Notes under the pieces: model-generated
Told to the model about the DNA's origin: nothing
Databases searched by the model: none
What the model saw: only the letters and a program-made list of their open reading frames with translations
Shown: positions 1 through 13,072 of the stretch, in pieces
How the letters are laid out: each line of letters starts with the position of its first letter
Position numbering within the stretch: position 1 is the first letter of the stretch
Program-made: the position numbers and the translations under genes
Virus record (IMG/VR): IMGVR_UViG_2671180405_000011
Source of the DNA: a virus
Lineage: Duplodnaviria > Heunggongvirae > Uroviricota > Caudoviricetes
Direction: 5' to 3' (one strand)
DNA: 13,072 nt

Positions 1-1
1 G

Positions 2-319
2 CTGCTTAAAAAAAGAACAAATGGTAGTGTCCGCTATTGCCAGTACACCTCAGAGTTTTACACCACAACCCGCAAACCCTCTGCGGGAGATGTTGGTGCA
101 TATACGCAGGCAGAATGTAACTCAAGGTTTATTACAGGTATTCGCCTTGGTGGTCTGTTATCTGTTCAGACATGGAATGGTCCCGGATGGTCTGACAGGT
201 CAGGTTATGTTGTTACCGGTTCCGTTAACTCAAACAGAGATGAACTAATTGATACAACTCAGGCAAGGCCAATTCAGTATTGCATTAATGGGACGTGGTA
301 TAACGCGGGGAGTATTTAA
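2..319 (+). CDS. Tail fibre protein, C-terminal end of the currently expressed variable domain (Sv); 5' part lies outside the window
   Basis: Frame ending at TAA 317-319 translates to ...GYVVTGSVNSNRDELIDTTQARPIQYCINGTWYNAGSI*. Its C-terminus parallels the minus-strand segment 1413-2441 (...[12 protein letters not shown]). The stop lies 2 nt before the chaperone start, as in Mu S-U and P2 H-G. Confidence 0.75.
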   Translation: MLKKRTNGSVRYCQYTSEFYTTTRKPSAGDVGAYTQAECNSRFITGIRLGGLLSVQTWNGPGWSDRSGYVVTGSVNSNRDELIDTTQARPIQYCINGTWYNAGSI

Positions 320-321
320 CG

Positions 322-855
322 ATGATGCACTTAAAAAACATTTCTGCTGGTAATCCTGAAACAAAAGAGCAATACCAGCTAACGAAACAATTTAACATCA
401 AATGGCTTTATACAGAGGATGGGAAAAACTGGTATGAGGAACAAAAGAACTTTCAGCCTGATACGTTGAAAATGGTCTATGACCACAACGGCGTTATTAT
501 TTGTATTGAAAAGGATGTTTCAGCAATTAATCCGGAAGGCGCAAGCGTCGTTGAGGTTCCTGATATTACAGCAAATCGCCGGGCTGATATTTCAGGTAAA
601 TGGATGTTCAAAGATGGCGTAGTGATAAAGCGAACTTATACCGGGGAAGAGCAGAGGCAACAAGCGGAAAATGAAAAGCAAAGCCTGCTACAGCTCGTCA
701 GGGATAAAACCCAGCTATGGGACTCACAGCTACGGCTGGGCATTATTTCCGACGAGAATAAACAAAAATTAACCGAGTGGATGCTCTATGCGCAGAAGGT
801 CGAATCCACAGACACCTCCAGCCTGCCAGTAACGTTTCCCGAACAACCAGAATGA
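322..855 (+). CDS. Tail fibre assembly chaperone (Tfa / Mu U / P2 G family)
   Basis: 177-aa ORF immediately after the fibre stop. It shares the N-terminal ~125 aa with the minus-strand paralogue (MMHLKNI.AGN...[24 protein letters not shown]) and differs in the C-terminus, which is the typical Tfa architecture. Confidence 0.85.
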   Translation: MMHLKNISAGNPETKEQYQLTKQFNIKWLYTEDGKNWYEEQKNFQPDTLKMVYDHNGVIICIEKDVSAINPEGASVVEVPDITANRRADISGKWMFKDGVVIKRTYTGEEQRQQAENEKQSLLQLVRDKTQLWDSQLRLGIISDENKQKLTEWMLYAQKVESTDTSSLPVTFPEQPE

Positions 856-858
856 AAC

Positions 859-886
859 AAGGCCCGATATCGGGCCTTAATTTTTA
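859..886. terminator. Palindromic hairpin with T-tract between convergent chaperone genes (likely bidirectional terminator)
   Basis: Perfect 20-bp palindrome aaggcccgatatcgggcctt (859-878) followed by aattttta; sits between the stop of 322-855 (+) and the stop of 884-1411 (-). Confidence 0.5.
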
Positions 887-1411
887 CTCAGGCTTTTGTG
901 GCCATTCTGGCTTTGCCGTATCCACACGGCTGACCAGAACACTGTAGCGTTCCCATGCTTCCAGTCGTGTGCGTTCCTCGTCCGTCGCCATATTCAGCCT
1001 GACAGCGCGTTCCAGCGGCTGGATGACTGATTCAGCTTCGGAAAGCAATGCGGCCTTTTGTGATTCGGCCTGTTGTTGCTGTTCGTCAGCCGTATAAATC
1101 CGTTTAACCACAGCTCCGTCCTTAAACATCCACTTACCGGAATCATCAGCACGACGATTAGCTGTAATATCAGGAACCTCAACGACGCTATAACCTTCAG
1201 GGTTAAGCGTGGAGGCATCTTTGGTGATGGCGACAATAATATTATTTGCATCGTAAACAATCTTTATTGTGTCTGGCTGAAAGTTCTTCACTTCCTCATA
1301 CCAGTTTTTTCCGTCCTCAGAGTAAAGCCAGATGACTCCGTGCTTCTTTGTTAACTCATACTGCTCCACTGTTTTAGCATTACCTGCTTTTATGTTCTTT
1401 AAGTGCATCAT
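884..1411 (-). CDS. Alternative tail fibre assembly chaperone (U'-like), inside the invertible segment
   Basis: The minus-strand ORF is listed to 1444, but the homologous start [11 protein letters not shown] is the ATG at 1411, 1 nt after the TAA of the upstream Sv' segment (TAATATG). This mirrors the plus-strand Sv/U junction. Confidence 0.8.
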
Positions 1412-1412
1412 A

Positions 1413-2441
1413 TTAAATACTCGCCACATTATACCAAGTGCCATTTATATACTTTTGCACTGGCCTGTAATGAACGCCTGCAATATTATCGGCAGAGTTT
1501 TTTCCGGTATCCTGTACGTTAATCCCCGTCAGTACATAGCCTGACGGGCACTGAAAATTCCATGTTTGCCAGTTGTTCACTCCATAATATTGCTGTGAAC
1601 CAAGTCGAACATCTTTCACATATCTGGAATCAAAATTGCCATAGTTGCCGGGAATAACTTGCGAGCCGCAAAGCCAGTTCCCGTTATTATCCATGTACGC
1701 CTGACCATCGGTGCCATTGGCTGTCCTTGAGTTATTAATCATGTAGATGCCAAATTGCTTATTTCCCAGACCGCCAATCATAAATTTGCGGTCGGCATGG
1801 TCCTGACGGAGCAAAGCCTGAGCACCATCAGTGGATACCGCATTACGTCCCAAAATAACATTCTGGTCACGCATATGAATCCACATGCCGGTACTACTGT
1901 TAATTGCAAAACGGTTTGCAAATATATCCCCTGTAACATCAAGACCATGCCCCATGCTTATCCGGCCAGTTCTGAGATTAAGCGTAAAGGGGCGTAGTGG
2001 CCCTATATTACCATTTTCCCCTTCATTCTCTCGTGTAGGGATGATATGCAGGCATTCTTCAGAACGACGAAAAATGGCACCAAAAGATGAATTAAATATC
2101 CTCAGTGCATTGACTGTCGATATTTTCACTTCACTGCTGAAAAGGGCTTCAACAAGAACAGACAAAGCATTCCATTTAAGATTCATCAGGTCTTTAGGCC
2201 GGGTGCCAATGATGCGGTGTCTCCATTTGAAATATTCATTGCCGTTGTTGCCTGTTTCAAACCACATGTAGGAATCGGTGTCTGCATCCGAATTATTTTT
2301 AAACCCAATCTTTGCCCAGTCAGTATTTCGAATCCAGGCAAGGATTGAGTCGTTTTCAAAAGTAAGTCCACCGGACAACGTATCGCCATTTTTTTGCACG
2401 GCGTTACCAGCCTTGTTTACCGTTTCCTGTAAACCGAGGTT
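1413..2441 (-). CDS. Alternative tail fibre C-terminal segment (Sv'-like), start-less cassette expressed only after inversion
   Basis: Minus-strand frame is open from 2441 with no proper ATG (listed start is GTG). It ends ...[12 protein letters not shown], paralogous to the plus-strand fibre C-terminus, and the frame opens just inside the crossover site. Confidence 0.75.
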
Positions 2442-2449
2442 TTAGATAA
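2424..2449. other. Serine-invertase crossover site (gix/hix/pix-like), right end of invertible segment
   Basis: ttcctgtaaaccgaggttttagataa: a 26-bp imperfect palindrome with 12-bp half sites around a central GA, closely matching recalled gix/hix sites. It lies about 55 bp upstream of the invertase start. Confidence 0.7.
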
Positions 2450-2503
2450 TGGCCGTTTCCGGCCTGCATGGCATGATTTGCGCTTTTGGACGGGAGATTC
2501 AGC

Positions 2504-2760
2504 GTGCTGATTGGCTATGTAAGGGTATCAACAAATGACCAGAATACAGACCTGCAACGAAACGCTCTTGTTTGTGCAGGATATGAACAAATATTTGAAG
2601 ATAAATTAAGCGGAACAAGGACAGGCCGACCTGGATTAAAACGTGCTTTAAAGCGCCTTCAAAAAGGTGACGCACTGGTTGTCTGAAAACTGGACTGACT
2701 GGGTCACTGTATGCGGCATCTTGTCGTGCTGGTGGTGGAAGCCTAGAAAAAGTATCGGGT
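2504..2760 (+). pseudogene. DNA invertase remnant (Gin/Pin/Hin/Cin family), inactivated
   Basis: GTG 2504 with SD gggaga, then MLIGYVRVSTNDQNTDLQRNAL... identical to the intact copy for about 80 bp. Scattered substitutions follow, TGG becomes TGA at 2684-2686 (W to stop), then further in-frame stops and weak residual similarity (LD*LGHCMRHLVVLV vs LDRLGRSMKHLISLV) to about 2760. Confidence 0.7.
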
Positions 2761-2844
2761 GTTGCTGAACCGTGTTGATACATCAACTGCACCTGATATT
2801 GAGTGGCCTACGAACCCTGTCAGGGAGTAATCATTGGGATTATG

Positions 2845-2877
2845 CCGCAGCACGTCTTAAGCAAGAACGTGCTGCGG
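2845..2877. other. Perfect 10-bp stem hairpin (ccgcagcacg / cgtgctgcgg, 13-nt loop), possible terminator
   Basis: Lies 8 nt beyond the methyltransferase stop (minus strand) and is followed on the plus strand by a T6 run at 2888-2893. There is no immediately adjacent U-tract on either strand, so terminator function is uncertain. Confidence 0.3.
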
Positions 2878-2884
2878 TTGGATG

Positions 2885-3532
2885 CTATTTTTTCCCTGAA
2901 GCGGAAAACATTACTACAGTACCTTGAACCCTGGTTTTAACATTCTCGAAATGCTCTGAGAGTATATGTGTTAAGCCTTCTTCGGAATCTTTTGTGTTTG
3001 AAAAGATGCCTTTCTGATTGTAAATGCGCATCAGTTTTTGACCGAAGCTATTGTGCACAACTCCATCGCCAAGAATTGTGGCTCCGTATAGAGTTCCATC
3101 GTCAGTTAAGGCCTGCGCCGCATTGCGTATTACACAGCTTTTTGTAGATATATTTCCAGGCAGGCAGTGAAGAAGGTAAAACATGGAAATGGAATCAAAT
3201 TGACCATGTAACGCCGCGGGATAAGGTTCAAAAACATCATGGCTAATTTTATGTTTAATTTTTGATTCCCCAGCCCTTGTAGATGCCGCGTTCAGGCTAG
3301 CTTCGTTCAAATCCATTAAAGATATCAGACTACTCTCAGGTACGTGAGTAAGGTAAAACCCAGTTCCAACACCAATATCCAGATGGTTGTTACCTAAATG
3401 TTCCAGAAAGTGTGGAAGAAGGTGTTCCTTTGTAGGACATCCCCATGCAAGCCGATTTGATACTCCCAAAACCCACCAGTCATAAAGCTTTAGGGTAAGT
3501 GGTGTGTAAATTTTAGCCCCATCATCTGTGTT
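2885..3532 (-). pseudogene. Class I SAM-dependent methyltransferase, 5'-truncated (small-molecule/RNA type, not an obvious DNA methyltransferase)
   Basis: Minus-strand frame is open from the repeat junction at 3532 to TAG at 2885-2887. It carries the Rossmann motif I LDIGVGTGFY and a post-I acidic/hydrophobic segment. There is no ATG with an RBS; the listed start is an internal TTG and the frame runs into the repeat, so the N-terminus is missing. The region is visibly AT-richer than its flanks. Confidence 0.6.
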
Positions 3533-3768
3533 TAGTGATAAAGCGAACTTATACCGGGGAAGAGCAGAGGCAACAAGCGGAAAATGAAAAGCAAAGCCTG
3601 CTACAGCTCGTCAGGGATAAAACCCAGCTATGGGACTCACAGCTACGGCTGGGCATTATTTCCGACGAGAATAAACAAAAATTAACCGAGTGGATGCTCT
3701 ATGCGCAGAAGGTCGAATCCACAGACACCTCCAGCCTGCCAGTAACGTTTCCCGAACAACCAGAATGA
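3533..3768 (+). pseudogene. Tail fibre assembly chaperone, C-terminal fragment (copy 2; lacks first ~100 codons)
   Basis: Identical to 619-855 of the intact chaperone gene. Identity begins abruptly at 3533; upstream sequence is methyltransferase, not chaperone. Confidence 0.7.
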
Positions 3769-3771
3769 AAC

Positions 3772-3799
3772 AAGGCCCGATATCGGGCCTTAATTTTTA
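3772..3799. terminator. Copy 2 of the palindromic hairpin with T-tract
   Basis: Same sequence as 859-886, offset 2913. Confidence 0.45.
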
Positions 3800-4324
3800 C
3801 TCAGGCTTTTGTGGCCATTCTGGCTTTGCCGTATCCACACGGCTGACCAGAACACTGTAGCGTTCCCATGCTTCCAGTCGTGTGCGTTCCTCGTCCGTCG
3901 CCATATTCAGCCTGACAGCGCGTTCCAGCGGCTGGATGACTGATTCAGCTTCGGAAAGCAATGCGGCCTTTTGTGATTCGGCCTGTTGTTGCTGTTCGTC
4001 AGCCGTATAAATCCGTTTAACCACAGCTCCGTCCTTAAACATCCACTTACCGGAATCATCAGCACGACGATTAGCTGTAATATCAGGAACCTCAACGACG
4101 CTATAACCTTCAGGGTTAAGCGTGGAGGCATCTTTGGTGATGGCGACAATAATATTATTTGCATCGTAAACAATCTTTATTGTGTCTGGCTGAAAGTTCT
4201 TCACTTCCTCATACCAGTTTTTTCCGTCCTCAGAGTAAAGCCAGATGACTCCGTGCTTCTTTGTTAACTCATACTGCTCCACTGTTTTAGCATTACCTGC
4301 TTTTATGTTCTTTAAGTGCATCAT
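3797..4324 (-). CDS. Alternative tail fibre assembly chaperone (U'-like), copy 2
   Basis: Translation identical to 884-1411. Confidence 0.75.
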
Positions 4325-4325
4325 A

Positions 4326-5354
4326 TTAAATACTCGCCACATTATACCAAGTGCCATTTATATACTTTTGCACTGGCCTGTAATGAACGCCTGCAATATT
4401 ATCGGCAGAGTTTTTTCCGGTATCCTGTACGTTAATCCCCGTCAGTACATAGCCTGACGGGCACTGAAAATTCCATGTTTGCCAGTTGTTCACTCCATAA
4501 TATTGCTGTGAACCAAGTCGAACATCTTTCACATATCTGGAATCAAAATTGCCATAGTTGCCGGGAATAACTTGCGAGCCGCAAAGCCAGTTCCCGTTAT
4601 TATCCATGTACGCCTGACCATCGGTGCCATTGGCTGTCCTTGAGTTATTAATCATGTAGATGCCAAATTGCTTATTTCCCAGACCGCCAATCATAAATTT
4701 GCGGTCGGCATGGTCCTGACGGAGCAAAGCCTGAGCACCATCAGTGGATACCGCATTACGTCCCAAAATAACATTCTGGTCACGCATATGAATCCACATG
4801 CCGGTACTACTGTTAATTGCAAAACGGTTTGCAAATATATCCCCTGTAACATCAAGACCATGCCCCATGCTTATCCGGCCAGTTCTGAGATTAAGCGTAA
4901 AGGGGCGTAGTGGCCCTATATTACCATTTTCCCCTTCATTCTCTCGTGTAGGGATGATATGCAGGCATTCTTCAGAACGACGAAAAATGGCACCAAAAGA
5001 TGAATTAAATATCCTCAGTGCATTGACTGTCGATATTTTCACTTCACTGCTGAAAAGGGCTTCAACAAGAACAGACAAAGCATTCCATTTAAGATTCATC
5101 AGGTCTTTAGGCCGGGTGCCAATGATGCGGTGTCTCCATTTGAAATATTCATTGCCGTTGTTGCCTGTTTCAAACCACATGTAGGAATCGGTGTCTGCAT
5201 CCGAATTATTTTTAAACCCAATCTTTGCCCAGTCAGTATTTCGAATCCAGGCAAGGATTGAGTCGTTTTCAAAAGTAAGTCCACCGGACAACGTATCGCC
5301 ATTTTTTTGCACGGCGTTACCAGCCTTGTTTACCGTTTCCTGTAAACCGAGGTT
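4326..5354 (-). CDS. Alternative tail fibre C-terminal segment (Sv'-like), copy 2
   Basis: Translation identical to 1413-2441. Confidence 0.7.
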
Positions 5355-5362
5355 TTAGATAA
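5337..5362. other. Serine-invertase crossover site (gix/hix/pix-like), copy 2
   Basis: ttcctgtaaaccgaggttttagataa, identical to 2424-2449 and in the same (direct) orientation. Confidence 0.7.
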
Positions 5363-5416
5363 TGGCCGTTTCCGGCCTGCATGGCATGATTTGCGCTTTT
5401 GGACGGGAGATTCAGC

Positions 5417-6004
5417 GTGCTGATTGGCTATGTAAGGGTATCAACAAATGACCAGAATACAGACCTGCAACGAAACGCTCTTGTTTGTGCAGGATGTGAA
5501 CAAATATTTGAAGATAAATTAAGCGGGACAAAGACAGACCGACCGGGATTAAAACGCGCTTTAAAGCGCCTTCAAAAAGGTGACACGCTGGTTGTCTGGA
5601 AACTGGATCGCCTCGGGCGAAGCATGAAACATCTGATTTCTCTCGTCGGGGAACTACGGGAGCGAGGAATTAATTTTCGCAGTCTGACCGACAGCATAGA
5701 TACATCTTCTCCAATGGGGCGTTTTTTCTTCCACGTGATGGGTGCCCTGGCTGAAATGGAACGTGAATTAATTGTTGAACGTACACTGGCCGGACTGGCG
5801 GCAGCACGCGCACGGGGGCGCACAGGCGGACGTCGACCGAAGCTGACAAAAGAACAGCATGAGCAAATAGCAAGGCTGATCAAAAACGGGCACGACAGAA
5901 AACAACTGGCAATAATTTACGGCATTGGTATATCGACGATTTATCGTTACCACCCCGCAGGAGAATCAATCGGAACAATAGAGAAGAGTCAGGAAACAAA
6001 ATAA
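5417..6004 (+). CDS. Site-specific DNA invertase, small serine recombinase of the Gin/Pin/Hin/Cin family (intact)
   Basis: GTG 5417 preceded by SD gggaga. N-terminus MLIGYVRVSTNDQNTDLQ carries the catalytic Ser; VVWKLDRLGRS, SPMGRFFFHVMGALAEMERELIVERT and a C-terminal helix-turn-helix (GGRRPKLT...) follow. It sits immediately downstream of a gix-like site, as Mu gin and e14 pin do. Confidence 0.9.
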   Translation: MLIGYVRVSTNDQNTDLQRNALVCAGCEQIFEDKLSGTKTDRPGLKRALKRLQKGDTLVVWKLDRLGRSMKHLISLVGELRERGINFRSLTDSIDTSSPMGRFFFHVMGALAEMERELIVERTLAGLAAARARGRTGGRRPKLTKEQHEQIARLIKNGHDRKQLAIIYGIGISTIYRYHPAGESIGTIEKSQETK

Positions 6005-6036
6005 CCGCTAATCTGACCATTAGCGGTTTTTGTGTT
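6003..6036. terminator. Bidirectional rho-independent terminator between convergent invertase and gpU genes
   Basis: Stem aaccgctaat / attagcggtt with loop ctgacc, followed by ttttgtgtt on the plus strand and by TTATTTT on the minus strand. Confidence 0.6.
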
Positions 6037-6039
6037 AAA

Positions 6040-6528
6040 TCAGAACAACCCTTTAACTGAACTGGCCGCGCTGTTAAGGGATGATGTTACCTTATCTTTG
6101 AAGCCGGACAGCATATCGCTGAACGATGAGGATTGCAGGCGCTCCCGCAAATCCTCATCACAGCGTTCAAGAGTCAGTGAAAATTCTATCTTTTTCGCCT
6201 TACCGTAGCGATCAAACTCGGAGCGGGTCGTATTCGTTTCGGTCAGGACATACATGCCGTAAATCTGCCCGACGCCATCAATCAGAGGCCAGGGTCGTCC
6301 TGTATACGCCTGCGTGGTCAGCAGCGACAGCGACACTTCGCCACCTGTAATTTCAGGATAAAGCACACCAGAAAGAACGATGCGCTCATCACCTGCACCG
6401 ATATACTGCCAGCTTGCCGAACGGTTAACGCGTTCATTTTTCACATGCCGCCAGCTTTTGTTTTGCTGTAACTGCTGATGCGGCAATGTACGCAGCTCAA
6501 AAACAAACATGCCGTAGATCATCATCAT
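6040..6528 (-). CDS. U: Phage tail protein gpU (P2 U family)
   Basis: Matches recalled P2 gpU: short N-terminal Met run, then GxFVF...SWRH...RVNRS...GVLYPEITGG...LIDG. The listed ORF starts at 6534, but SD GAGGAG spacing favours the third ATG at 6528. It follows T on the same strand. Confidence 0.85.
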   Translation of the reverse strand: MMMIYGMFVFELRTLPHQQLQQNKSWRHVKNERVNRSASWQYIGAGDERIVLSGVLYPEITGGEVSLSLLTTQAYTGRPWPLIDGVGQIYGMYVLTETNTTRSEFDRYGKAKKIEFSLTLERCDEDLRERLQSSSFSDMLSGFKDKVTSSLNSAASSVKGLF

Positions 6529-6540
6529 GGCCATGACTCC

Positions 6541-9357
6541 TCAATCTTTATCGTAAAAACTGCCACGCCCGGCACGGGCGCGCCGTTCCATTTCTGCCCT
6601 GACCATTTCACCGACCAGTTTCGCCAGTTCGCGGGGATTCTGCGTAACAACGTTATGCAGATGAACATGAATTTCACCACCAAATCCGGAGGCAACAGGC
6701 TCCCGGTTACGGGAAGTTACAGGAACTGATGCCACTGGAGAGCGTATGGCCTCCGCCACCGGGCGGGAGCTGGCCGCAACAACAGGGACCAGCGCCGGAG
6801 GCAGCGGAGCCGGGACCACGGGTGTGATATTAATTGCGGGGGCAGGCTTACTGACCTGCGCAATCTTCCGCTCCTGCCACTCCCCACGAACAGCAAGTGC
6901 GCGGGGCAGGTTCTTAAAGACAATATCGCCGGGGCCAATGCGTTTTTTCGTCTCATCAACCAGCTTACCTGTGTTATCAGCAATTTTGCTGAGTCTGCGT
7001 AGCGTCCCGGTATTGCTGTCTGTGAGCGGTTTGTTGTCTTTGGGTTTATCACCTCCGGTGCCATTGCCATTTTCCACAGGCTTCGGCGGATTGATTTTCG
7101 CCAGGTCCCCCTGAAGCAAGGCAACCTTGTCCTGAAGAATGGCCGCACGCTGTGCGTCTTCGATTTTCTTGCGCGCCCTTTCCGCTTCATCCGGAAGGAC
7201 GCCAAGTTTTTCAAGTATCCACGCCAGCGTATCCAGTAGCATTTTTGCAGGTGTCAGAACAAGTTGTAACGCACCGCCAAGAACGTTACCGAATATCTCG
7301 CCAGCACTGGCACATTTATCCAGCGTTTCCTTGCTGGACTCCATCGGTGACAGCAGCGATTTAAACCAGTTAAAGACCTGAATAATCCCATCGCGCACGA
7401 CATCAAAAACAGGGCCAAACCGTTCAAAGGTTTCGCGCAACGGGGTCAGCCTTTCCATAATCCCGCTGAACACCCCGGCAAAAAATGCCCTGATGGGATC
7501 CCAGTATTTCCAGATAAGAACGGCAGCTCCGGCAAGCGCAGCCACGATAAGACTAACCGGACTGAACAGCGCCCCGATAGCGCCACCAAGTAAAGAAACG
7601 GAACCCGTCACCATTCCCCATAATGCAGGCAGAACCCTGACAACATTCATTGATTCGGTCAGGAGAGAAAAACCGAGACGCAACGTAGCCAGCTTCCCGT
7701 GAAGCACCCCAATAACCAGAGACAACGAACCAACCGTTGCTGTTGTCGCCAGCAGTGCGCCTCCCGCTATCAGTAACTGGCGCGTCAGTGCCGGGTGGGC
7801 CTGCGCCAGCGCCGTCACCTTTGAGACAACCCGCGTGAGCCACTGCGTGACAGAACGCAGCGGACCGTCAACCAGATCACTGATGCGAATACGCAGACCT
7901 TCCCATGCACTGCCGAGTGATTTCAGGTTGCCATCAAGGTTATTGGCCATAACCTTTGCCGTGCGTTCTGCCTCACCGCGCGCGCCTTCAAGTTCTTTTC
8001 TCAGTTTGGCTAAGAAGCCGTCACCTGCCGCATCAACGAGGCCCATAAATGATGTGAAAGCCTCTTCTCCGGCAATGTCCTTAAAGAACGATACCCGGTC
8101 AACCTCCCCGTATTTGCGGGTGGCTTTATAGAGATCGGCCAGCACATTCTCCATCGGGCGCATTTTGCCTTTGGCGTCAGCAACTGACACCCCCAGCTCT
8201 TTCAGTGCTTCTGCCGCTGCCTTTGGCGGTGATGACAGATTGGCCAGGCTTTTACGCAACGCTGTACCTGCATCACTCCCCCTGATACCCATCTTCGCCA
8301 GCACGCCCGCCATCGCTGCGGCCTGCTCCAGCGATATTCCCAGCTTACCCGCCACCGGACCTGCATATTTCATGGTTTCGCCCAGTGCGCGAAGGTCAGT
8401 GTTGGTACGGGTAAACGCTGCGGTAAGTGTGTCACCGACCCGGTCCATCTGGTCAGCAGAGAGGCCGAACTGCGTCAGGATATTGGAACCAATATCCGCC
8501 GTCTCGCCGAGGTCCATACCGCCAGCCGTTGCCATGCTCAGCACGCCGGGAAGCGCAGCCTGAATGGCCTGCGGTGTGAAACCAGCCATTGCAAGAAATG
8601 CCTGTCCACTGGCGGCATCGCCTGCGGTGAACTGCGTTTCAGAGCCAAGTTTTAACGCCTGCTCACGCAGCGCCTTAAACTGCGGGCTGTTTTTATCGAT
8701 TCGCGTCAGTGCCTGAACACGGGACATCTCTTTCCCGAACCCGATAGCGGGCTGCAAAAAACGCCCGGCAGCATAGCCGCCCGCTGCCGCCGCACCTGTT
8801 GCCAGCGCACCACCTGTTTTCAGTTTTCCCGCTGTTTCCTGCGCGCGTGAATACCGCTCACGCGCCTGCGTTACACGCGCAAGCGCCCGCCGTTCGCGTT
8901 CAAGCTGGTTGTTGTATTGTCCGGTGCGTCTGATGGCCTGCTGGATGGTGTTATCGCTGCCTGTCAGGGAAATGCCGTGGCGTTTCAGCTCTCCGCCAAG
9001 TTCCCGCATTTTCTGAATTTCCCGTGTGCGCGATTCATTCAGGCGTTCAAGCCGGGTGCTTAACTGCTGCATCAGCTTTTGTTGTTTTTCGCTGAGCACT
9101 GTACCCGTGCGTTGTAACTGATTAAGGGCGTTAAGCTGGCGTCGTGCTTTCACGATGCCCGCATCCGCTTTACTGACAGCGTCACGGGCGCGCTCAAATG
9201 AACGCGCCTGACGCTCGAGATTTTTGATCGCCCCCTGCGTTCGCTGGATGGAGTCACCAAACTGCCCCATCAGGCGGCGGGCGTTTTCGGCAGGCCGGGT
9301 CAGCCTGTCAACGGCGCTGAAAGCGACCCGGATATCAAGAGTCTTCATTGTCTGCAT
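6541..9357 (-). CDS. T: Tail tape measure protein (P2 gpT-like)
   Basis: About 940-aa ORF rich in Ala/Gly/Leu with coiled-coil N-terminal third and hydrophobic central segments. It sits between E/E' and U as in P2. The start is ambiguous (GTG 9384, ATG 9357 or ATG 9348). Confidence 0.85.
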   Translation of the reverse strand: MQTMKTLDIRVAFSAVDRLTRPAENARRLMGQFGDSIQRTQGAIKNLERQARSFERARDAVSKADAGIVKARRQLNALNQLQRTGTVLSEKQQKLMQQLSTRLERLNESRTREIQKMRELGGELKRHGISLTGSDNTIQQAIRRTGQYNNQLERERRALARVTQARERYSRAQETAGKLKTGGALATGAAAAGGYAAGRFLQPAIGFGKEMSRVQALTRIDKNSPQFKALREQALKLGSETQFTAGDAASGQAFLAMAGFTPQAIQAALPGVLSMATAGGMDLGETADIGSNILTQFGLSADQMDRVGDTLTAAFTRTNTDLRALGETMKYAGPVAGKLGISLEQAAAMAGVLAKMGIRGSDAGTALRKSLANLSSPPKAAAEALKELGVSVADAKGKMRPMENVLADLYKATRKYGEVDRVSFFKDIAGEEAFTSFMGLVDAAGDGFLAKLRKELEGARGEAERTAKVMANNLDGNLKSLGSAWEGLRIRISDLVDGPLRSVTQWLTRVVSKVTALAQAHPALTRQLLIAGGALLATTATVGSLSLVIGVLHGKLATLRLGFSLLTESMNVVRVLPALWGMVTGSVSLLGGAIGALFSPVSLIVAALAGAAVLIWKYWDPIRAFFAGVFSGIMERLTPLRETFERFGPVFDVVRDGIIQVFNWFKSLLSPMESSKETLDKCASAGEIFGNVLGGALQLVLTPAKMLLDTLAWILEKLGVLPDEAERARKKIEDAQRAAILQDKVALLQGDLAKINPPKPVENGNGTGGDKPKDNKPLTDSNTGTLRRLSKIADNTGKLVDETKKRIGPGDIVFKNLPRALAVRGEWQERKIAQVSKPAPAINITPVVPAPLPPALVPVVAASSRPVAEAIRSPVASVPVTSRNREPVASGFGGEIHVHLHNVVTQNPRELAKLVGEMVRAEMERRARAGRGSFYDKD

Positions 9358-9864
9358 TCCCGCTGCGAAGTGCCGCCCGCTCACGCCAGCTAACCACTTC
9401 GCCGGGCGTCATCATGAAGATTTCGGCGGGCGACCAGTTAAAAATGGCGGCAATATCCGCCACAAAGTCTTCTATGTGCTCAAAGCACACAACCGTGATC
9501 AGGCTTCCGTCGCCTGTTCGTTCTTCTCGCCAGAGTCCGCACCGCTCAAAAAATTTACGGCAACCACACATAACTGAATAAAGTCACGGGATGCCATTTT
9601 TTTGATCGTCACTTCATCCAGTCGCGGTGATGTCACGCGTGACAGCAGCGTAAACATGGATTCCGCTTTCAAATTCAGCACATCAGACAGCGACAAATCT
9701 CGCAGAGATCCAGCCTGCTCAATAGCCCCGGTGATCTCCACATACGTGATTTTTTCGCCGCCTCGCTCAATTGGTTGGGTAAGTTTTACGCCACGCTCAC
9801 TGGTTTCTTTCACAGTGTCAGCAACGACCGTGTTTTCGGTATCGATGTTTTTCGTCTCTTTCAT
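9335..9864 (-). CDS. E+E': gpE+E' fusion chaperone made by programmed -1 ribosomal frameshift
   Basis: Slippery heptamer T TTT TTG on the minus strand (plus coordinates 9547-9553) in the E frame (AAT TTT TTG). The -1 frame then stays open for about 70 codons (ERCGLWREERTGDG...NADNEDS*) to 9335, overlapping the start of T, as with P2 E/E' and lambda G/GT. Confidence 0.7.
9499..9864 (-). CDS. E: Tail assembly chaperone gpE (zero-frame product)
   Basis: ATG 9864 with strong SD AAAGGAG at 7-nt spacing; 121 aa ending ...ASRDFIQLCVVAVNFLSGADSGEKNEQATEA, between tube and tape measure genes. Confidence 0.8.
   Translation of the reverse strand: MKETKNIDTENTVVADTVKETSERGVKLTQPIERGGEKITYVEITGAIEQAGSLRDLSLSDVLNLKAESMFTLLSRVTSPRLDEVTIKKMASRDFIQLCVVAVNFLSGADSGEKNEQATEA
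9547..9553 (-). promoter_or_regulatory. Programmed -1 frameshift slippery site (T TTT TTG)
   Basis: Plus strand reads caaaaaa; its reverse complement TTTTTTG is in X XXY YYZ register in the E frame. Confidence 0.65.
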
Positions 9865-9918
9865 CAGGAAACTCCTTTCAGTCAGAGGCGACGCACTGCG
9901 CCGCCTGCATATTACTTA

Positions 9919-10431
9919 TCAGCCAAGCCCGAGCGCGGAACGGATGCGATCGGGCACAATGTCCCTGCCGTCCTTCCGGTAAATGAAGTTCAGCAGGTCA
10001 ATCTCCCACAACGGGCGATCGTTAACACTCAGCTTGTAGTAGGTGTTTTTAATGGCGTAAGTGTGTGATGTGGCTTCGCCCTGTTTGGCTTCCCCCATAT
10101 CAATTTCCGTCACACGTCCGCGCATTTCGACTTCATACAGGTCGCTTTCAGCGTCGGTGTAGTATTCACCCGCAAAACGCAGCAGCGTACCGTCAATCGT
10201 GCCGCCATACTTAAGGAACAGCTCACGAACTGCGCCCCCCATGACAAAGCTCGCATCAAGCGCGGAGTCATCCAGGCCGAGATCAATACTTACCGCTCCC
10301 ATCATGCCACCACCCCGGTAGCTGTCGGTTTTGCGCGTCAGCTTAGGCAGAGTGACGGACGTCACCTTACCCACTTCGTTTTCACCATCCACAAACAGCG
10401 TAAAAAAGCGAAGATGTTTTGGTACAGCCAT
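9919..10431 (-). CDS. FII: Tail tube protein (P2 FII family)
   Basis: 170 aa with VTLPKLTRK...YRGGGM...IDLGLDD...GTIDG..LRFAG...VEMRGR, matching recalled P2 FII. Its start ATG overlaps the FI stop (TGATG), and SD GGGAGG lies upstream. Confidence 0.9.
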   Translation of the reverse strand: MAVPKHLRFFTLFVDGENEVGKVTSVTLPKLTRKTDSYRGGGMMGAVSIDLGLDDSALDASFVMGGAVRELFLKYGGTIDGTLLRFAGEYYTDAESDLYEVEMRGRVTEIDMGEAKQGEATSHTYAIKNTYYKLSVNDRPLWEIDLLNFIYRKDGRDIVPDRIRSALGLG

Positions 10432-11615
10432 CAGGCACCTCCCAGCACCGCAAATGCGGGACCAAAGAATTCATCAGTAAACGACTGGTAAAGCTCCATG
10501 TCTTCCAGCGGGGGAACAGGCGTATATTTGTAGCGAATACGCACGCGCCCCTGACGTAAATTCGTGGTGCCGTTATCCACCACGTCATACCAGCACGACG
10601 CCCCAATCAGTTTCCCGGCAGTAACCAGTGAATCCAGTTTTGCCCTGATGGCACCGATAACATCCTTCACGTTCGCAGGCGTCAGTGGACTGTCGATGGT
10701 TTCAAACTGCGCTTCCGCAATTGAATCAGCCAGCACCTGTGCGGTTCGGGTATACACCTCAAAGATGTAGGCGTTCGTTTCCGGTGTGCGGTTGCCCCAG
10801 AAGCGGAACCCGTTGCGACGAATAATGGTCGTGATTTCTTTGTTGTTGAGGCTGTTGGCATCACTGTCTTCGGCCTGCAACGACCAGAACACATGCCTGG
10901 ACATCCCCAGCACATTTTTAACCGGAACGTTGGACAGCGATTTGTGCCAGCCCTGCTCATGGTCAATGTACGCACGAAGGCCGCACGCATAGGCAGGCGC
11001 GGGGAACGTTTCGTTTTTGCCACTTTTCGGGTTGTAGGCGATGAAGTCCGGCCATAAGAGCATCACCTCACGTTCGTTGAATTTCTGGCGGTAGGTAATT
11101 GCCTCAGCCATCGTGTTACAGTCATGACATGAGGCATACACAAACGCGCGCAGTTTACCCGCAATCACGCACAGGGATTTTGTCACCGCCTCCGTGTCCA
11201 GCTCCGGCGCGGCCAGAATACGCGGACGGTATCCGATGCTTTCATCCTGCTCTGCAACAAGCAGCGCATACATCCCCGTATAGCTGCCGTCAGATTCAGA
11301 ACCACCGATAACCAGTTGATCCTGCGTTTTTCCGTCTTCTTCTTTGTGTTCAGCCACGCGAACGACGATCACCTTTGTGCTCACCTGGTCTGCGATGGCC
11401 TTAAGCGCACGATAAAGCGTCCCCGTTGTTCCGCATTTTCCCAGCACGTCATTGACGCGGGGCAGCAGTGTGGGCTTGTTCAGCGGGAACAGCTCCGCGT
11501 CCGCATCATCCGCCGTTGCCACGATACCGATAACGCTGGAATCAACATCGTTAATCGCTGTTACCAGGTCGGTATTTTCCGTAACACGGGCACCATGAAA
11601 ACGAGTTTCACTCAT
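10431..11615 (-). CDS. FI: Contractile tail sheath protein (P2 FI family)
   Basis: 394 aa with ...DADAE.FPLNKP...KLRAF.Y...WPDF...GLRA.IDHEQGWHK.LSNV...IRR.GFRFWGNRT...NYTRTAQV.AD...YDYTPVPPLE, matching recalled P2 FI. SD AAGGGG upstream of ATG 11615. Confidence 0.9.
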   Translation of the reverse strand: MSETRFHGARVTENTDLVTAINDVDSSVIGIVATADDADAELFPLNKPTLLPRVNDVLGKCGTTGTLYRALKAIADQVSTKVIVVRVAEHKEEDGKTQDQLVIGGSESDGSYTGMYALLVAEQDESIGYRPRILAAPELDTEAVTKSLCVIAGKLRAFVYASCHDCNTMAEAITYRQKFNEREVMLLWPDFIAYNPKSGKNETFPAPAYACGLRAYIDHEQGWHKSLSNVPVKNVLGMSRHVFWSLQAEDSDANSLNNKEITTIIRRNGFRFWGNRTPETNAYIFEVYTRTAQVLADSIAEAQFETIDSPLTPANVKDVIGAIRAKLDSLVTAGKLIGASCWYDVVDNGTTNLRQGRVRIRYKYTPVPPLEDMELYQSFTDEFFGPAFAVLGGA

Positions 11616-11772
11616 AGCTTCAACCCCTTGTATCCGTTAAATGATTCGGCAACAATCATCACCCACCACGCGCGTAATCTCACCCCTGCGCCATTCTCCC
11701 GCCACGGCGACAACAAAAAGCAGTAACCCCCTCCGCACGCACATGCGACCATGCCACACAGGGAGGGAGCAG

Positions 11773-12882
11773 ATGACCGACACCACCATGCAATTGCTCA
11801 GTCAGGGCACAGACCCCGTGAAAATGCCGGATTTTGATATTCTCGCGGAGGGTAAAACGCTGTCAGGCGTGGCAGAGCGCCTGATGAGCCTGTCACTGAC
11901 CGACAACCGGGGATTTGAGGCGGACCAGCTCACCATCACGCTGGATGATGCGGATGGTCAGTTGCAGCTACCGCCACGGGGCGCGCGCCTGACGGTTCTC
12001 ATTGGCTGGAAGGGAGAACCGCTGACAGAAAAAGGCACTTACATTGTTGATGAAATCGCTCACGAAGGACCGCCGGACAGGCTGACTGTTTCAGCCAGAA
12101 GCGCAGATTTTCGGGCTGAATTTAACGTTAAACGTGAGGTGTCCTGGCATGATGTGACCGTTGAGCGTGTGGTATCCGCCATCGCTCATCGGTATGGTCT
12201 GAAACCGCAAATCAGCGAAATGCTGATGGATATCGAAATCGACCACGCCGACCAGACCGAAGAAAGCGACATGTCCTTCCTTACGCGCATGGCGGAAATG
12301 CTGGGCGCAATCACCACGGTAAAAAGCGGTAATCTGTTATTCATCATGCCCGGTGGTGGCGTGAACGCACAGGGCCAGCCGTTGCCCTCGTTCGCCATCA
12401 CACGCAGCAGCGGCGATCGCCATCAGTTCCGCATTGCTGACCGCGAAGCGTATACGGGGGTACGCGCTTACTGGCTTGATCTTAATTACGGGAAAAAGAA
12501 AAAAGTCAGCGTGAAACGCCGCAAACCGTCAAAACCAAAAAAGGAGAAAAGCAGCAGCCGGGAAGGCGACTATATGGAAGGTGCGGAAGGCAACGTGTTT
12601 GTGTTACGCAAAACTTATCAGAACGAGCAGGCAGCAAGACGTGCAGCGGCGGCAAAGTGGCAGCAGCTACAACGCGGAGCCGCATCATTCTCCATCACAC
12701 TGGCGCATGGACGTGCAGAACTCTACCCCGAAATGCATGGCACGGTAACAGGATTTAAAAGCGAGATTGATAATCAGGACTGGATTATTGCAAAAGCCGA
12801 GCACACCATTGATAACAGCGGCTTTACCACGCAGCTTGAGCTTGAGGCAAAAATCCCGGAATGGATAGCAGAAACAGAGTGA
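11773..12882 (+). CDS. D: Phage tail protein gpD (P2 late control gene D family)
   Basis: ATG 11773 preceded by SD gggagggag. The 369-aa product has a Lys-rich low-complexity stretch and a C-terminus ...DNSGFTTQLELEAKI, consistent with recalled gpD. The longer listed ORF from 11641 has no RBS and a low-complexity N-terminus. Confidence 0.8.
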   Translation: MTDTTMQLLSQGTDPVKMPDFDILAEGKTLSGVAERLMSLSLTDNRGFEADQLTITLDDADGQLQLPPRGARLTVLIGWKGEPLTEKGTYIVDEIAHEGPPDRLTVSARSADFRAEFNVKREVSWHDVTVERVVSAIAHRYGLKPQISEMLMDIEIDHADQTEESDMSFLTRMAEMLGAITTVKSGNLLFIMPGGGVNAQGQPLPSFAITRSSGDRHQFRIADREAYTGVRAYWLDLNYGKKKKVSVKRRKPSKPKKEKSSSREGDYMEGAEGNVFVLRKTYQNEQAARRAAAAKWQQLQRGAASFSITLAHGRAELYPEMHGTVTGFKSEIDNQDWIIAKAEHTIDNSGFTTQLELEAKIPEWIAETE

Positions 12883-13072
12883 GCAACTTAAATGTATTAA
12901 CTCAGAACGGATCAACACACTCACAACATAGAGTCAATATAGCTGCTCGCTTTGTTCCAGCAAGGATGCCTATTTCTAAGGAAAAACAGAGCAGAAACAT
13001 ATGGTGTTTTCCTACCTGACATCAGGGGTGGTAGACTGGCCCCCTGAATCTCCAGACAACCAGTATCACTTA

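Follow-up and report, generated by a model that had tools for sequence, protein, structure and literature searches.

How does a methyltransferase gene come to lie between two copies of the same tail fiber cassette, and does it still serve a purpose there? This question is raised by the Caudoviricetes record IMGVR_UViG_2671180405_000011, a stretch of 13,072 nucleotides that was analyzed at its full length (hereafter, “the window”). This stretch spans the tail region of a P2-like prophage and probably represents an entire short-read contig of a Shigella sonnei-like genome rich in insertion sequences (IS), running from an IS600 end to an IS2 end. The gene between the cassette copies, initially annotated as a class I S-adenosylmethionine (SAM)-dependent methyltransferase, is not a novel methyltransferase but the known ybcY of the cryptic prophage DLP12, and the copy found here appears to be a very recent pseudogene. 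The 2.9-kb unit that contains it is likely a scar of recombination, left in a P2-like prophage that is decaying in a Shigella sonnei-like or E. coli strain, and the insert amounts to ordinary prophage mosaicism, not to a new kind of system.

The identity of the gene is established by several comparisons. Window 2733–3533 is 99.0% identical to ybcY (b0562) of K-12 MG1655, which lies between tfaD and tfaX in DLP12 and is itself annotated as a pseudogene, and the intact allele matches phrog_2132 with E = 4.2e-157 over residues 5–222. When at least 80% of the gene at 95% identity or more is taken as the threshold, 3801 of the 5426 complete E. coli genomes carry ybcY, with a median of one copy; 14 sequenced temperate Escherichia phages carry the gene as well (e.g., ev243 and 2G7b). 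In lambdoid prophages and in these phages, intact ybcY is located downstream of the side-tail-fiber genes on the strand opposite to the late genes, and it is present in some related phages and missing from others. Genomic SELEX (systematic evolution of ligands by exponential enrichment) has assigned to ybcY a constitutive RpoD promoter, TTGATT-17-TATAAC, within the H-NS-bound ybcY/tfaX spacer (PMC3946193), and this element sits immediately upstream of the start in intact copies. The full-length family is ybcY/phrog_2132, found at lambdoid prophage ends; its opposite orientation and its own mapped sigma-70 promoter agree with the earlier description of the gene as a moron or cargo gene.

The copy in the window occupies the minus strand at 2885–3532 and consists of 215 codons and a stop, including the motif LDIGVGTGFY, just as had been annotated. 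Its 215-residue translation scores above the Pfam gathering cut-offs of four methyltransferase domains, i.e., Methyltransf_12 (37.7 bits, cut-off 30), _23 (28.9, 27), _25 (27.8, 27) and _11 (24.7, 21.2), the best of these matches having E = 3.6e-9. The frame indeed enters the junction at 3532/3533 without a start codon: it stays open for 26 codons upstream, through antisense tfa (tail fiber assembly gene) sequence, to a TGA near 3613, and no ATG, GTG or TTG was found in this extension, the first candidate being a TTG at 3469. Past 3533, the plus strand of intact genes continues as TTTTTCATTGATTTCACCAT; in the direction of coding, this is ATGGTGAAATCAATGAAAAAAAAC.... The normal family length is 218 amino acids, counted from the second ATG (MKKNTDDG), where nearly all of the 30 aligned homologs start. 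Only three codons are missing from the window copy by this family start, or seven by the annotated 222-residue start; the term “5'-truncated” therefore holds for the lost start and overstates the rest, as the fold is not cut. The loss that matters is that of the start codon and the promoter, not of a portion of the fold. The TTGATT-17-TATAAC element lies in the deleted spacer and is absent from the window copy, no promoter-like site was found in 2400–3900, and a bidirectional terminator hairpin at 3771–3792 parts the methyltransferase open reading frame (ORF) from the promoterless genes upstream of it, tfa' and Hv' (see feature list below). Relative to the allele of E. coli JJ1886, there are only two substitutions, both conservative, V53L and K208R, and both L53 and R208 are seen in other family members. 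Given that start, three codons and promoter are lost while only two substitutions separate the alleles, the window copy would have become a pseudogene very recently.

Could the gene nevertheless still work, with the in-frame TTG at 3469 serving as the start of a 194-residue protein? Gene callers do report this ORF, the sequence GGTGGG occurs just upstream of the TTG, and the Rossmann core is kept from motif I onward. However, GGTGGG is only 2–3 nt away from the TTG, the site has a terminator and no promoter-like site upstream, and a start at this codon would drop the N-terminal block Y16...Y24-D-W-W-V-L29, a block that does not vary across the 30 aligned full-length members of the family. The window copy keeps the YDWWVL block, with no start upstream of it. 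We regard a functional product from this TTG as highly unlikely.

Other ybcY alleles are damaged in different ways. In K-12, the gene has been killed by ATG → ATA and A8 → A7 at its 5' A-run (L026 6760–6830 versus L001 6930–6960), and the breakpoint in the window falls in the same run, which suggests that the 5' poly-A run is a mutational weak point of ybcY. Among the proteins P0012/P0001, one damaged allele has a C-terminus that runs into an end sequence which we take to be IS629-like, and another contains an internal tandem duplication of ~43 residues. In S. sonnei GCA_900159025.1 (L025 10001–10672; P0079), ybcY has undergone an independent rearrangement: from approximately residue 90 onward, it continues in frame an internal segment of a tail fiber constant region (...GKQPKDATLT). 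Judging by the order of the genes, a lambdoid prophage may have undergone an internal inversion here.

The position of the gene follows from a direct repeat, 620–2686 versus 3533–5599, with a period of 2913. The copies are 100% identical over 620–2582 (1963 bp) and then show nine mismatches up to 2686, in the 5' region of an invertase gene; real homology between them runs out near 2694. The DNA between the copies had been described as visibly more AT-rich than its flanks and as something other than phage tail DNA; the first statement does not hold, and the second goes too far. Its G+C (guanine plus cytosine) fraction is 0.437 (0.417 for the methyltransferase ORF alone), compared to 0.453 and 0.454 in the repeat copies, 0.423 in window 1–619 and 0.39–0.40 in parts of the cassette, which rules out an AT-rich island; the true step in composition separates the cassette region at 1–6000 (~0.44–0.45) from the P2 tail genes (0.546). 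Moreover, the insert holds a 3' fragment of a tail fiber assembly gene with an in-frame TAG (~2695–2830), which is annotated as such in matching genomes. The features of the window are as follows (coordinates, strand, description):

1–52, no strand assigned: right end of IS600, with a 100% match over 1–52 to many IS600 copies.
50–319, plus strand: Hv, 3' end of the tail fiber variable segment, cut by IS600, with its TAA at 317–319; annotated as tail fiber or phage tail protein in matching genomes.
322–855, plus strand: tfa, intact, 177 amino acids (Pfam Caudo_TAP, E = 7e-37); the repeat starts inside it at 620.
884–1411, minus strand: tfa' copy 1, alternative tail fiber assembly gene, 175 amino acids (Caudo_TAP, E = 3e-37; called with 175 amino acids in relatives).
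1413–2438, minus strand: Hv' copy 1, silent alternative C-terminal segment of the tail fiber, an ORF whose frame is open to the crossover site; Gp34_trimer matches in relatives.
2424–2449, plus strand: crossover site copy 1, Gin/Pin type, 26 bp, TTCCTGTAAACCGAGGTTTTAGATAA, with the core AAACCGAGGTTT at 2431–2442.
2504–2686, plus strand: truncated invertase, ~60 amino acids, lambdoid allele, ended by TGG → TGA at 2684–2686; N-terminal part of Pfam Resolvase only, and alignment to intact pin.
2695–2830, plus strand: lambda-type tfa 3' fragment with in-frame TAG; “tail fiber assembly protein, incomplete” in JJ1886 and OZ040035.
2885–3532, minus strand: ybcY-family class I SAM-dependent methyltransferase, apparent pseudogene, 215 codons and stop (Pfam, alignments, K-12 match).
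3532–3534, no strand assigned: novel junction, ...CTGTGTT[T]AGTGATAAAG..., joining methyltransferase codon 4 to mid-tfa with 1 nt of microhomology.
3533–3768, plus strand: N-terminally truncated tfa, last 78 codons, start of repeat copy 2; identical to 620–855.
3797–4324, minus strand: tfa' copy 2, identical to copy 1.
4326–5351, minus strand: Hv' copy 2, identical to copy 1.
5337–5362, plus strand: crossover site copy 2, the same 26-bp TTCCTGTAAACCGAGGTTTTAGATAA, in direct orientation relative to copy 1.
5417–6004, plus strand: pin/gin-type serine invertase, intact, 195 amino acids (also 195 in relatives), the P2-like prophage’s own allele.
6040–12882: P2-like tail genes gpU, tape measure, E', E, tube and sheath (minus strand) and gpD (plus strand), from Pfam GpU and the annotations of relatives.
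6040–6534, minus strand: gpU.
6541–9348, minus strand: tape measure.
10431–11615, minus strand: sheath.
11641–12882, plus strand: gpD.
13032–13072, no strand assigned: left end of IS2, presumably (many-copy matches).

At the right-hand junction, window 3533 marks both the limit of homology to intact ybcY and the first base of the repeat, a single T being shared. This supports the earlier proposal that the gene was truncated by the event that created the junction of copy 2, and the junction looks like illegitimate recombination, as had also been proposed: microhomology is limited to 1 nt, and the parental breakpoints do not resemble the crossover site of the invertase, the best similarities being 14/26 and 12/26, compared to a mean of 12.5 and a maximum of 16 in shuffled sequence. 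That the invertase Pin itself produced the junction, by joining pseudo-crossover sites at the ybcY 5' end and in tfa, may be considered since an active invertase is adjacent, the cassette inverts between strains, and a core-like GAACCCTGGTTT occurs inside ybcY at 2926–2937. This match, however, is ~600 bp away from the junction, and the similarity at the actual breakpoints is at chance level; furthermore, the invertases Gin and Hin require a Fis-bound enhancer and strongly prefer inverted sites in cis. A Pin-mediated junction was rejected on the lack of crossover-site resemblance at the breakpoints, and we rate it as extremely improbable.

The intact invertase (window 5399–6004) matches the Pfam domains Resolvase (E = 1.5e-50) and HTH_7 (E = 1.8e-13). 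In S. sonnei 53G (L020) and two further loci (L022, L023), the fiber segment corresponding to window 50–2453 is flipped, with an endpoint in a 45-bp overlap, 2409–2453, that contains the crossover site; this opposite orientation implies that the invertase system has been active in the lineage. The two identical 26-bp crossover sites in the window are in direct orientation, and the partner site in inverted orientation would be expected in the H gene, beyond IS600 on the left, where the window does not reach.

BLAST comparisons separate two ancestries, from which it would follow that a resident cassette was duplicated and that a lambdoid block lies between the copies. Window 3533–13072 is 100% identical to the single-copy P2-like prophage loci L018 and L021, and window 50–2694 is 99.66% identical to the same loci, the nine differences being those between the truncated-pin and pin alleles. 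Window 2395/2429–3533 is instead 99.2–99.7% identical to lambdoid prophage ends that have Lom, J and stf as neighbors; the pin region of copy 2 is only ~95% identical to these ends, and the lambdoid prophages’ own fiber cassettes are only 72–89% identical to that of the window. By megablast of 2600–3620, 409 of the complete E. coli genomes match window 2600–3533 contiguously at ~99.6%, with the annotations recombinase (incomplete), tail fiber assembly protein (incomplete), hypothetical, and class I SAM-dependent methyltransferase. In JJ1886 and OZ040035, this block forms the right end of lambdoid prophages with the order J, Lom, stf, tfa, tfa', stf', and the methyltransferase (WP_000240999.1, 222 amino acids) is intact. 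The gene did therefore not arrive beside the resident invertase, as the initial annotation had it: since the block was already assembled at the lambdoid prophage ends of ~409 genomes (crossover site, truncated pin, tfa fragment and ybcY, the latter intact), the truncated invertase traveled together with ybcY. Its homology to pin stops near 2694, and in JJ1886 it is labeled as an incomplete recombinase. The left scar, i.e., truncated pin plus tfa fragment, is old and widespread, and only the right-hand ybcY-tfa junction is new.

Direct repeats of a tfa 3' end, ~100–150 bp long and 89% identical, flank ybcY on both sides in lambdoid prophages (L001 6148–6231 and 7104–7330; window 2733–2879); the fragment at window 2695–2830 is 89% identical to the second of the tfa fragments that flank the gene there. 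This is the pattern expected if the cassette had inserted via recombination within tfa.

From these relationships, the following sequence of events can be proposed. A lambdoid right-end block, comprising crossover site, truncated pin, tfa 3' fragment and ybcY, would have been copied into the invertible tail fiber cassette of the P2-like prophage. On the left, the switch from P2-type to lambdoid sequence falls within ~270 bp of 95%-identical sequence, made up of crossover site and pin 5' end, and for this reason the left join would have been driven by homology. On the right, the join, which looks illegitimate, falls in the A8/T8 run where ybcY begins and leads into mid-tfa through 1 nt of microhomology. 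Re-entering the resident cassette at this point would have duplicated tfa (3' part), tfa' and Hv', either in a single complex event of template switching or break-induced replication or in two successive exchanges. The right join would have stripped ybcY of its start codon, its first three codons and its sigma-70 promoter, and would have placed it behind the terminator hairpin and the promoterless silent genes.

A deletion between neighboring prophages could explain the same order without any duplication: copy 1 and the insert would then be the right end of a lambdoid prophage, which a deletion from ybcY codon 4 to mid-tfa fused to an adjacent P2-like prophage. Block 2424–3533 is of lambdoid type, a cassette of this type (stf, tfa, tfa', stf') is found in lambdoid prophages, and IS600 hides the sequence left of window 50. 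However, window 50–2582 is identical to the P2-like prophage’s own cassette in L018 and L021, the cassettes of lambdoid carriers of the exact ybcY allele are 72–89% identical, and the lambdoid sites (potB, ompW/trp) are far on the chromosome from the site of the P2-like prophage (ihfA/pheT). Such a deletion is, in our view, quite improbable. The window could also be read as a cross-family transfer in progress, in which the ybcY cassette, always bracketed by tfa fragments in lambdoid prophages, has moved to a P2-like prophage, from which it could leave as a 2.9-kb circle and integrate again at further crossover sites. Excision of the circle is conceivable because ybcY lies between two directly repeated Pin crossover sites, and if this reading were true, tfa and pix scars would serve as mobile handles for recombination, by which unrelated phage families could trade morons; we consider it very improbable.

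The duplication and scar that we favor presuppose that the contig is assembled correctly, and several points weigh against them. The junction was not found in the 5426 complete E. coli genomes, the GTDB representatives, IMG/VR or the JGI metagenomes. What looks like a short-read contig here crosses a perfect 1963-bp repeat twice, for which reason the order A-R-B-R'-C is the way in which the assembler resolved a graph loop, and the copies may owe their perfect identity to this artificially. That copy 1 is part of the P2-like prophage instead of a lambdoid one is inferred, the sequence left of IS600 being outside the window. An assembly artifact would mean that the P2-like cassette is single-copy, that the ybcY block has another place in the genome or forms a small excised circle, and that a graph loop was threaded into the contig; complete identity over the repeat fits one graph node traversed twice, window ends that coincide with IS600 and IS2 ends are typical of a short-read contig, and the failure to find the junction in any of the collections searched points the same way. 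On the other hand, the graph edge between ybcY and tfa requires reads with ...CTGTGTTTAGTGATAAAG..., and as the parents share 1 nt at this point, a false k-mer join is implausible. An origin-less 2.9-kb circle would itself have to derive from a tandem arrangement. Independent assemblies, moreover, break at or beside the same nucleotide from both sides: the draft contigs L009 and L010, from other assemblies, begin exactly at window 3533, and an identical 194-residue ORF occurs on twelve contigs that end at or near 3512–3528, the five shown at 3512 or 3528, so that the draft contigs of other assemblies break at the junction or within 21 nt of it. Related assemblies that lack the insert run unbroken through position 620. 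The contigs found through exactly matching proteins end at the junction, and none crosses it. An IS insertion at the ybcY 5' end was considered as the cause of these contig breaks and rejected, since the repeat-side contigs start at the junction nucleotide and the window contains no IS there. From the 1-nt overlap, the breaks in other contigs and the unbroken relatives at 620, we judge that the tandem arrangement is probably real, and that an artifact is unlikely, albeit not negligibly so.

The remainder of the window is consistent with a P2-like prophage under decay. The homology to the P2-like H gene of relatives begins at window 50, and IS600 breaks the variable part of the currently expressed tail fiber gene. 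Hv' presumably corresponds to the C-terminal half of P2 gpH, which it resembles. At the other end, TAGACTGGCCCCCTGAATCTCCAGACAACC... at 13032–13072 is what we take to be the left end of IS2, and relatives have IS3-family ORFs of 121 and 301 amino acids at the spot where the window ends. The tape measure protein is identical to its S. sonnei 53G counterpart. Across the prophage lineage (window, L003, L018–L024), the block from sheath through tube, E, E' and tape measure to gpU is inverted relative to the H/G fiber genes, gpD and ogr, which in P2 all share one direction with it; this inversion separates gpD from the promoter of the sheath operon. The arrangement recurs in >100 complete genomes of E. 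coli. At the boundary between sheath and gpD, a search for the core of a crossover site gave no match. Between gpD and ogr, a related P2-like prophage of E. coli strain B2 (L003 19076–22473) carries a His-Xaa-Ser hxsDBCA radical-SAM cluster, and a PIN_4 protein fills this position in L018–L020.

The fold gives some hint of what intact YbcY does. In all 31 aligned sequences, D59, G61, G63, T64 and G65 of motif I and D81 in LMDLN are invariant, D81 being the predicted acidic residue that ends strand 2 of the methyltransferase. The AlphaFold model of the intact allele (predicted local distance difference test, pLDDT, 90.3) shows alternating strands and helices in a seven-stranded alpha/beta fold and yields 1383 methyltransferase matches in the PDB at E ≤ 0.001. 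The Foldseek matches are generic small-molecule methyltransferases, and the best of them is the bacterial phosphatidylethanolamine N-methyltransferase 8ys9, with a template modeling (TM) score of ~0.6 and 15% identity; PDB sequence matches, to JHAMT and UbiG, are weak. Chromosomal homologs with 56–68% identity in Salmonella and Enterobacter are stand-alone genes, and no conserved neighbors that could provide a functional clue were found next to them. A PADLOC search for defense systems gave nothing significant, only mad2 at E = 0.009 and 12.9 bits with no stretch passing, and a role as a component of such a system was dismissed. Our best guess is that intact YbcY is a stand-alone, lysogen-expressed class I methyltransferase of the small-molecule type, and its acceptor might, with low confidence, be small, hydrophobic, and lipid- or quinone-like. 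The NCBIfam models UbiE/COQ5, RquA, PmtA and CpaM all remain below threshold, with 15.7–18 bits against cut-offs of 175–390. Assignment to a specific enzyme family (PmtA, RquA, CpaM, UbiG or JHAMT) was rejected, as similarity to all of them is remote and under the cut-offs. In the literature, eight papers were found to mention ybcY, and its function is addressed in none of them.

The locus adds one more case of recombination scars piling up in the tail fiber/invertase region of temperate enterobacterial phages, and one more in which lambdoid and P2-like prophages exchange accessory genes, and it shows a prophage decaying in an IS-rich, Shigella-like genome. For annotation, the ORF is properly called a ybcY pseudogene and not a 194-residue methyltransferase, and a perfect 2-kb duplication in a short-read contig calls for caution before it is used. 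The role of ybcY, a gene present in ~70% of complete E. coli genomes with a mapped constitutive promoter, is the only real question touched here, and a dead copy gives no help with it.

How does the locus compare to known systems? With small-molecule class I methyltransferases (PmtA 8ys9, UbiG, JHAMT, UbiE/RquA), YbcY shares the Rossmann-like seven-stranded fold, motif I and an N-terminal helical lid, whereas sequence identity is 12–21%, TM scores are ~0.55–0.66, NCBIfam scores are far under the cut-offs, and there is no common operon context. In comparison with ybcY of DLP12 (b0562), WP_000240999.1 and phrog_2132, the window copy has 99.0–99.7% nucleotide identity, tfa flanks of the tfaD/tfaX type and the same strand relationship, and the K-12 gene is a pseudogene as well. 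The K-12 copy, however, was inactivated by its start-codon and A-run mutations and the window copy by rearrangement at the same A-run, and the latter resides in a P2-like instead of a lambdoid prophage.

The window resembles the invertible segments of the Din family (Mu G/Gin, P1 C/Cin, e14 P/Pin) in having a serine invertase (Resolvase plus HTH_7), crossover sites of 26 bp, alternative fiber C-termini in opposed orientation that are each accompanied by a tfa of their own, and both orientations among strains. It differs from them in that the silent half is duplicated, two sites are in direct orientation, a foreign block lies between the sites, and the expressed fiber gene is broken by IS600. 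A search of the literature for a methyltransferase moron beside tail fiber invertases returned nothing specific. Another parallel is the sopE cassette, which, as Mirold and colleagues reportedly described in 2001, is shared by the P2-like SopEPhi and lambdoid phages. Here, too, an accessory gene beside tail fiber and invertase remnants is said to occur in two unrelated phage families, whereas the cargo in the window is a methyltransferase and not an effector, and the copy is inactivated. The location in the window corresponds to a cargo hotspot: in P2, the Z/fun locus between the tail fiber genes and the sheath operon accommodates cargo, swapped fiber and tfa genes, and invertases with inverted neighbors (bioRxiv 10.1101/2024.10.15.618418). 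At this hotspot, the window carries no defense or toxin gene, but a dead gene from a lambdoid prophage.

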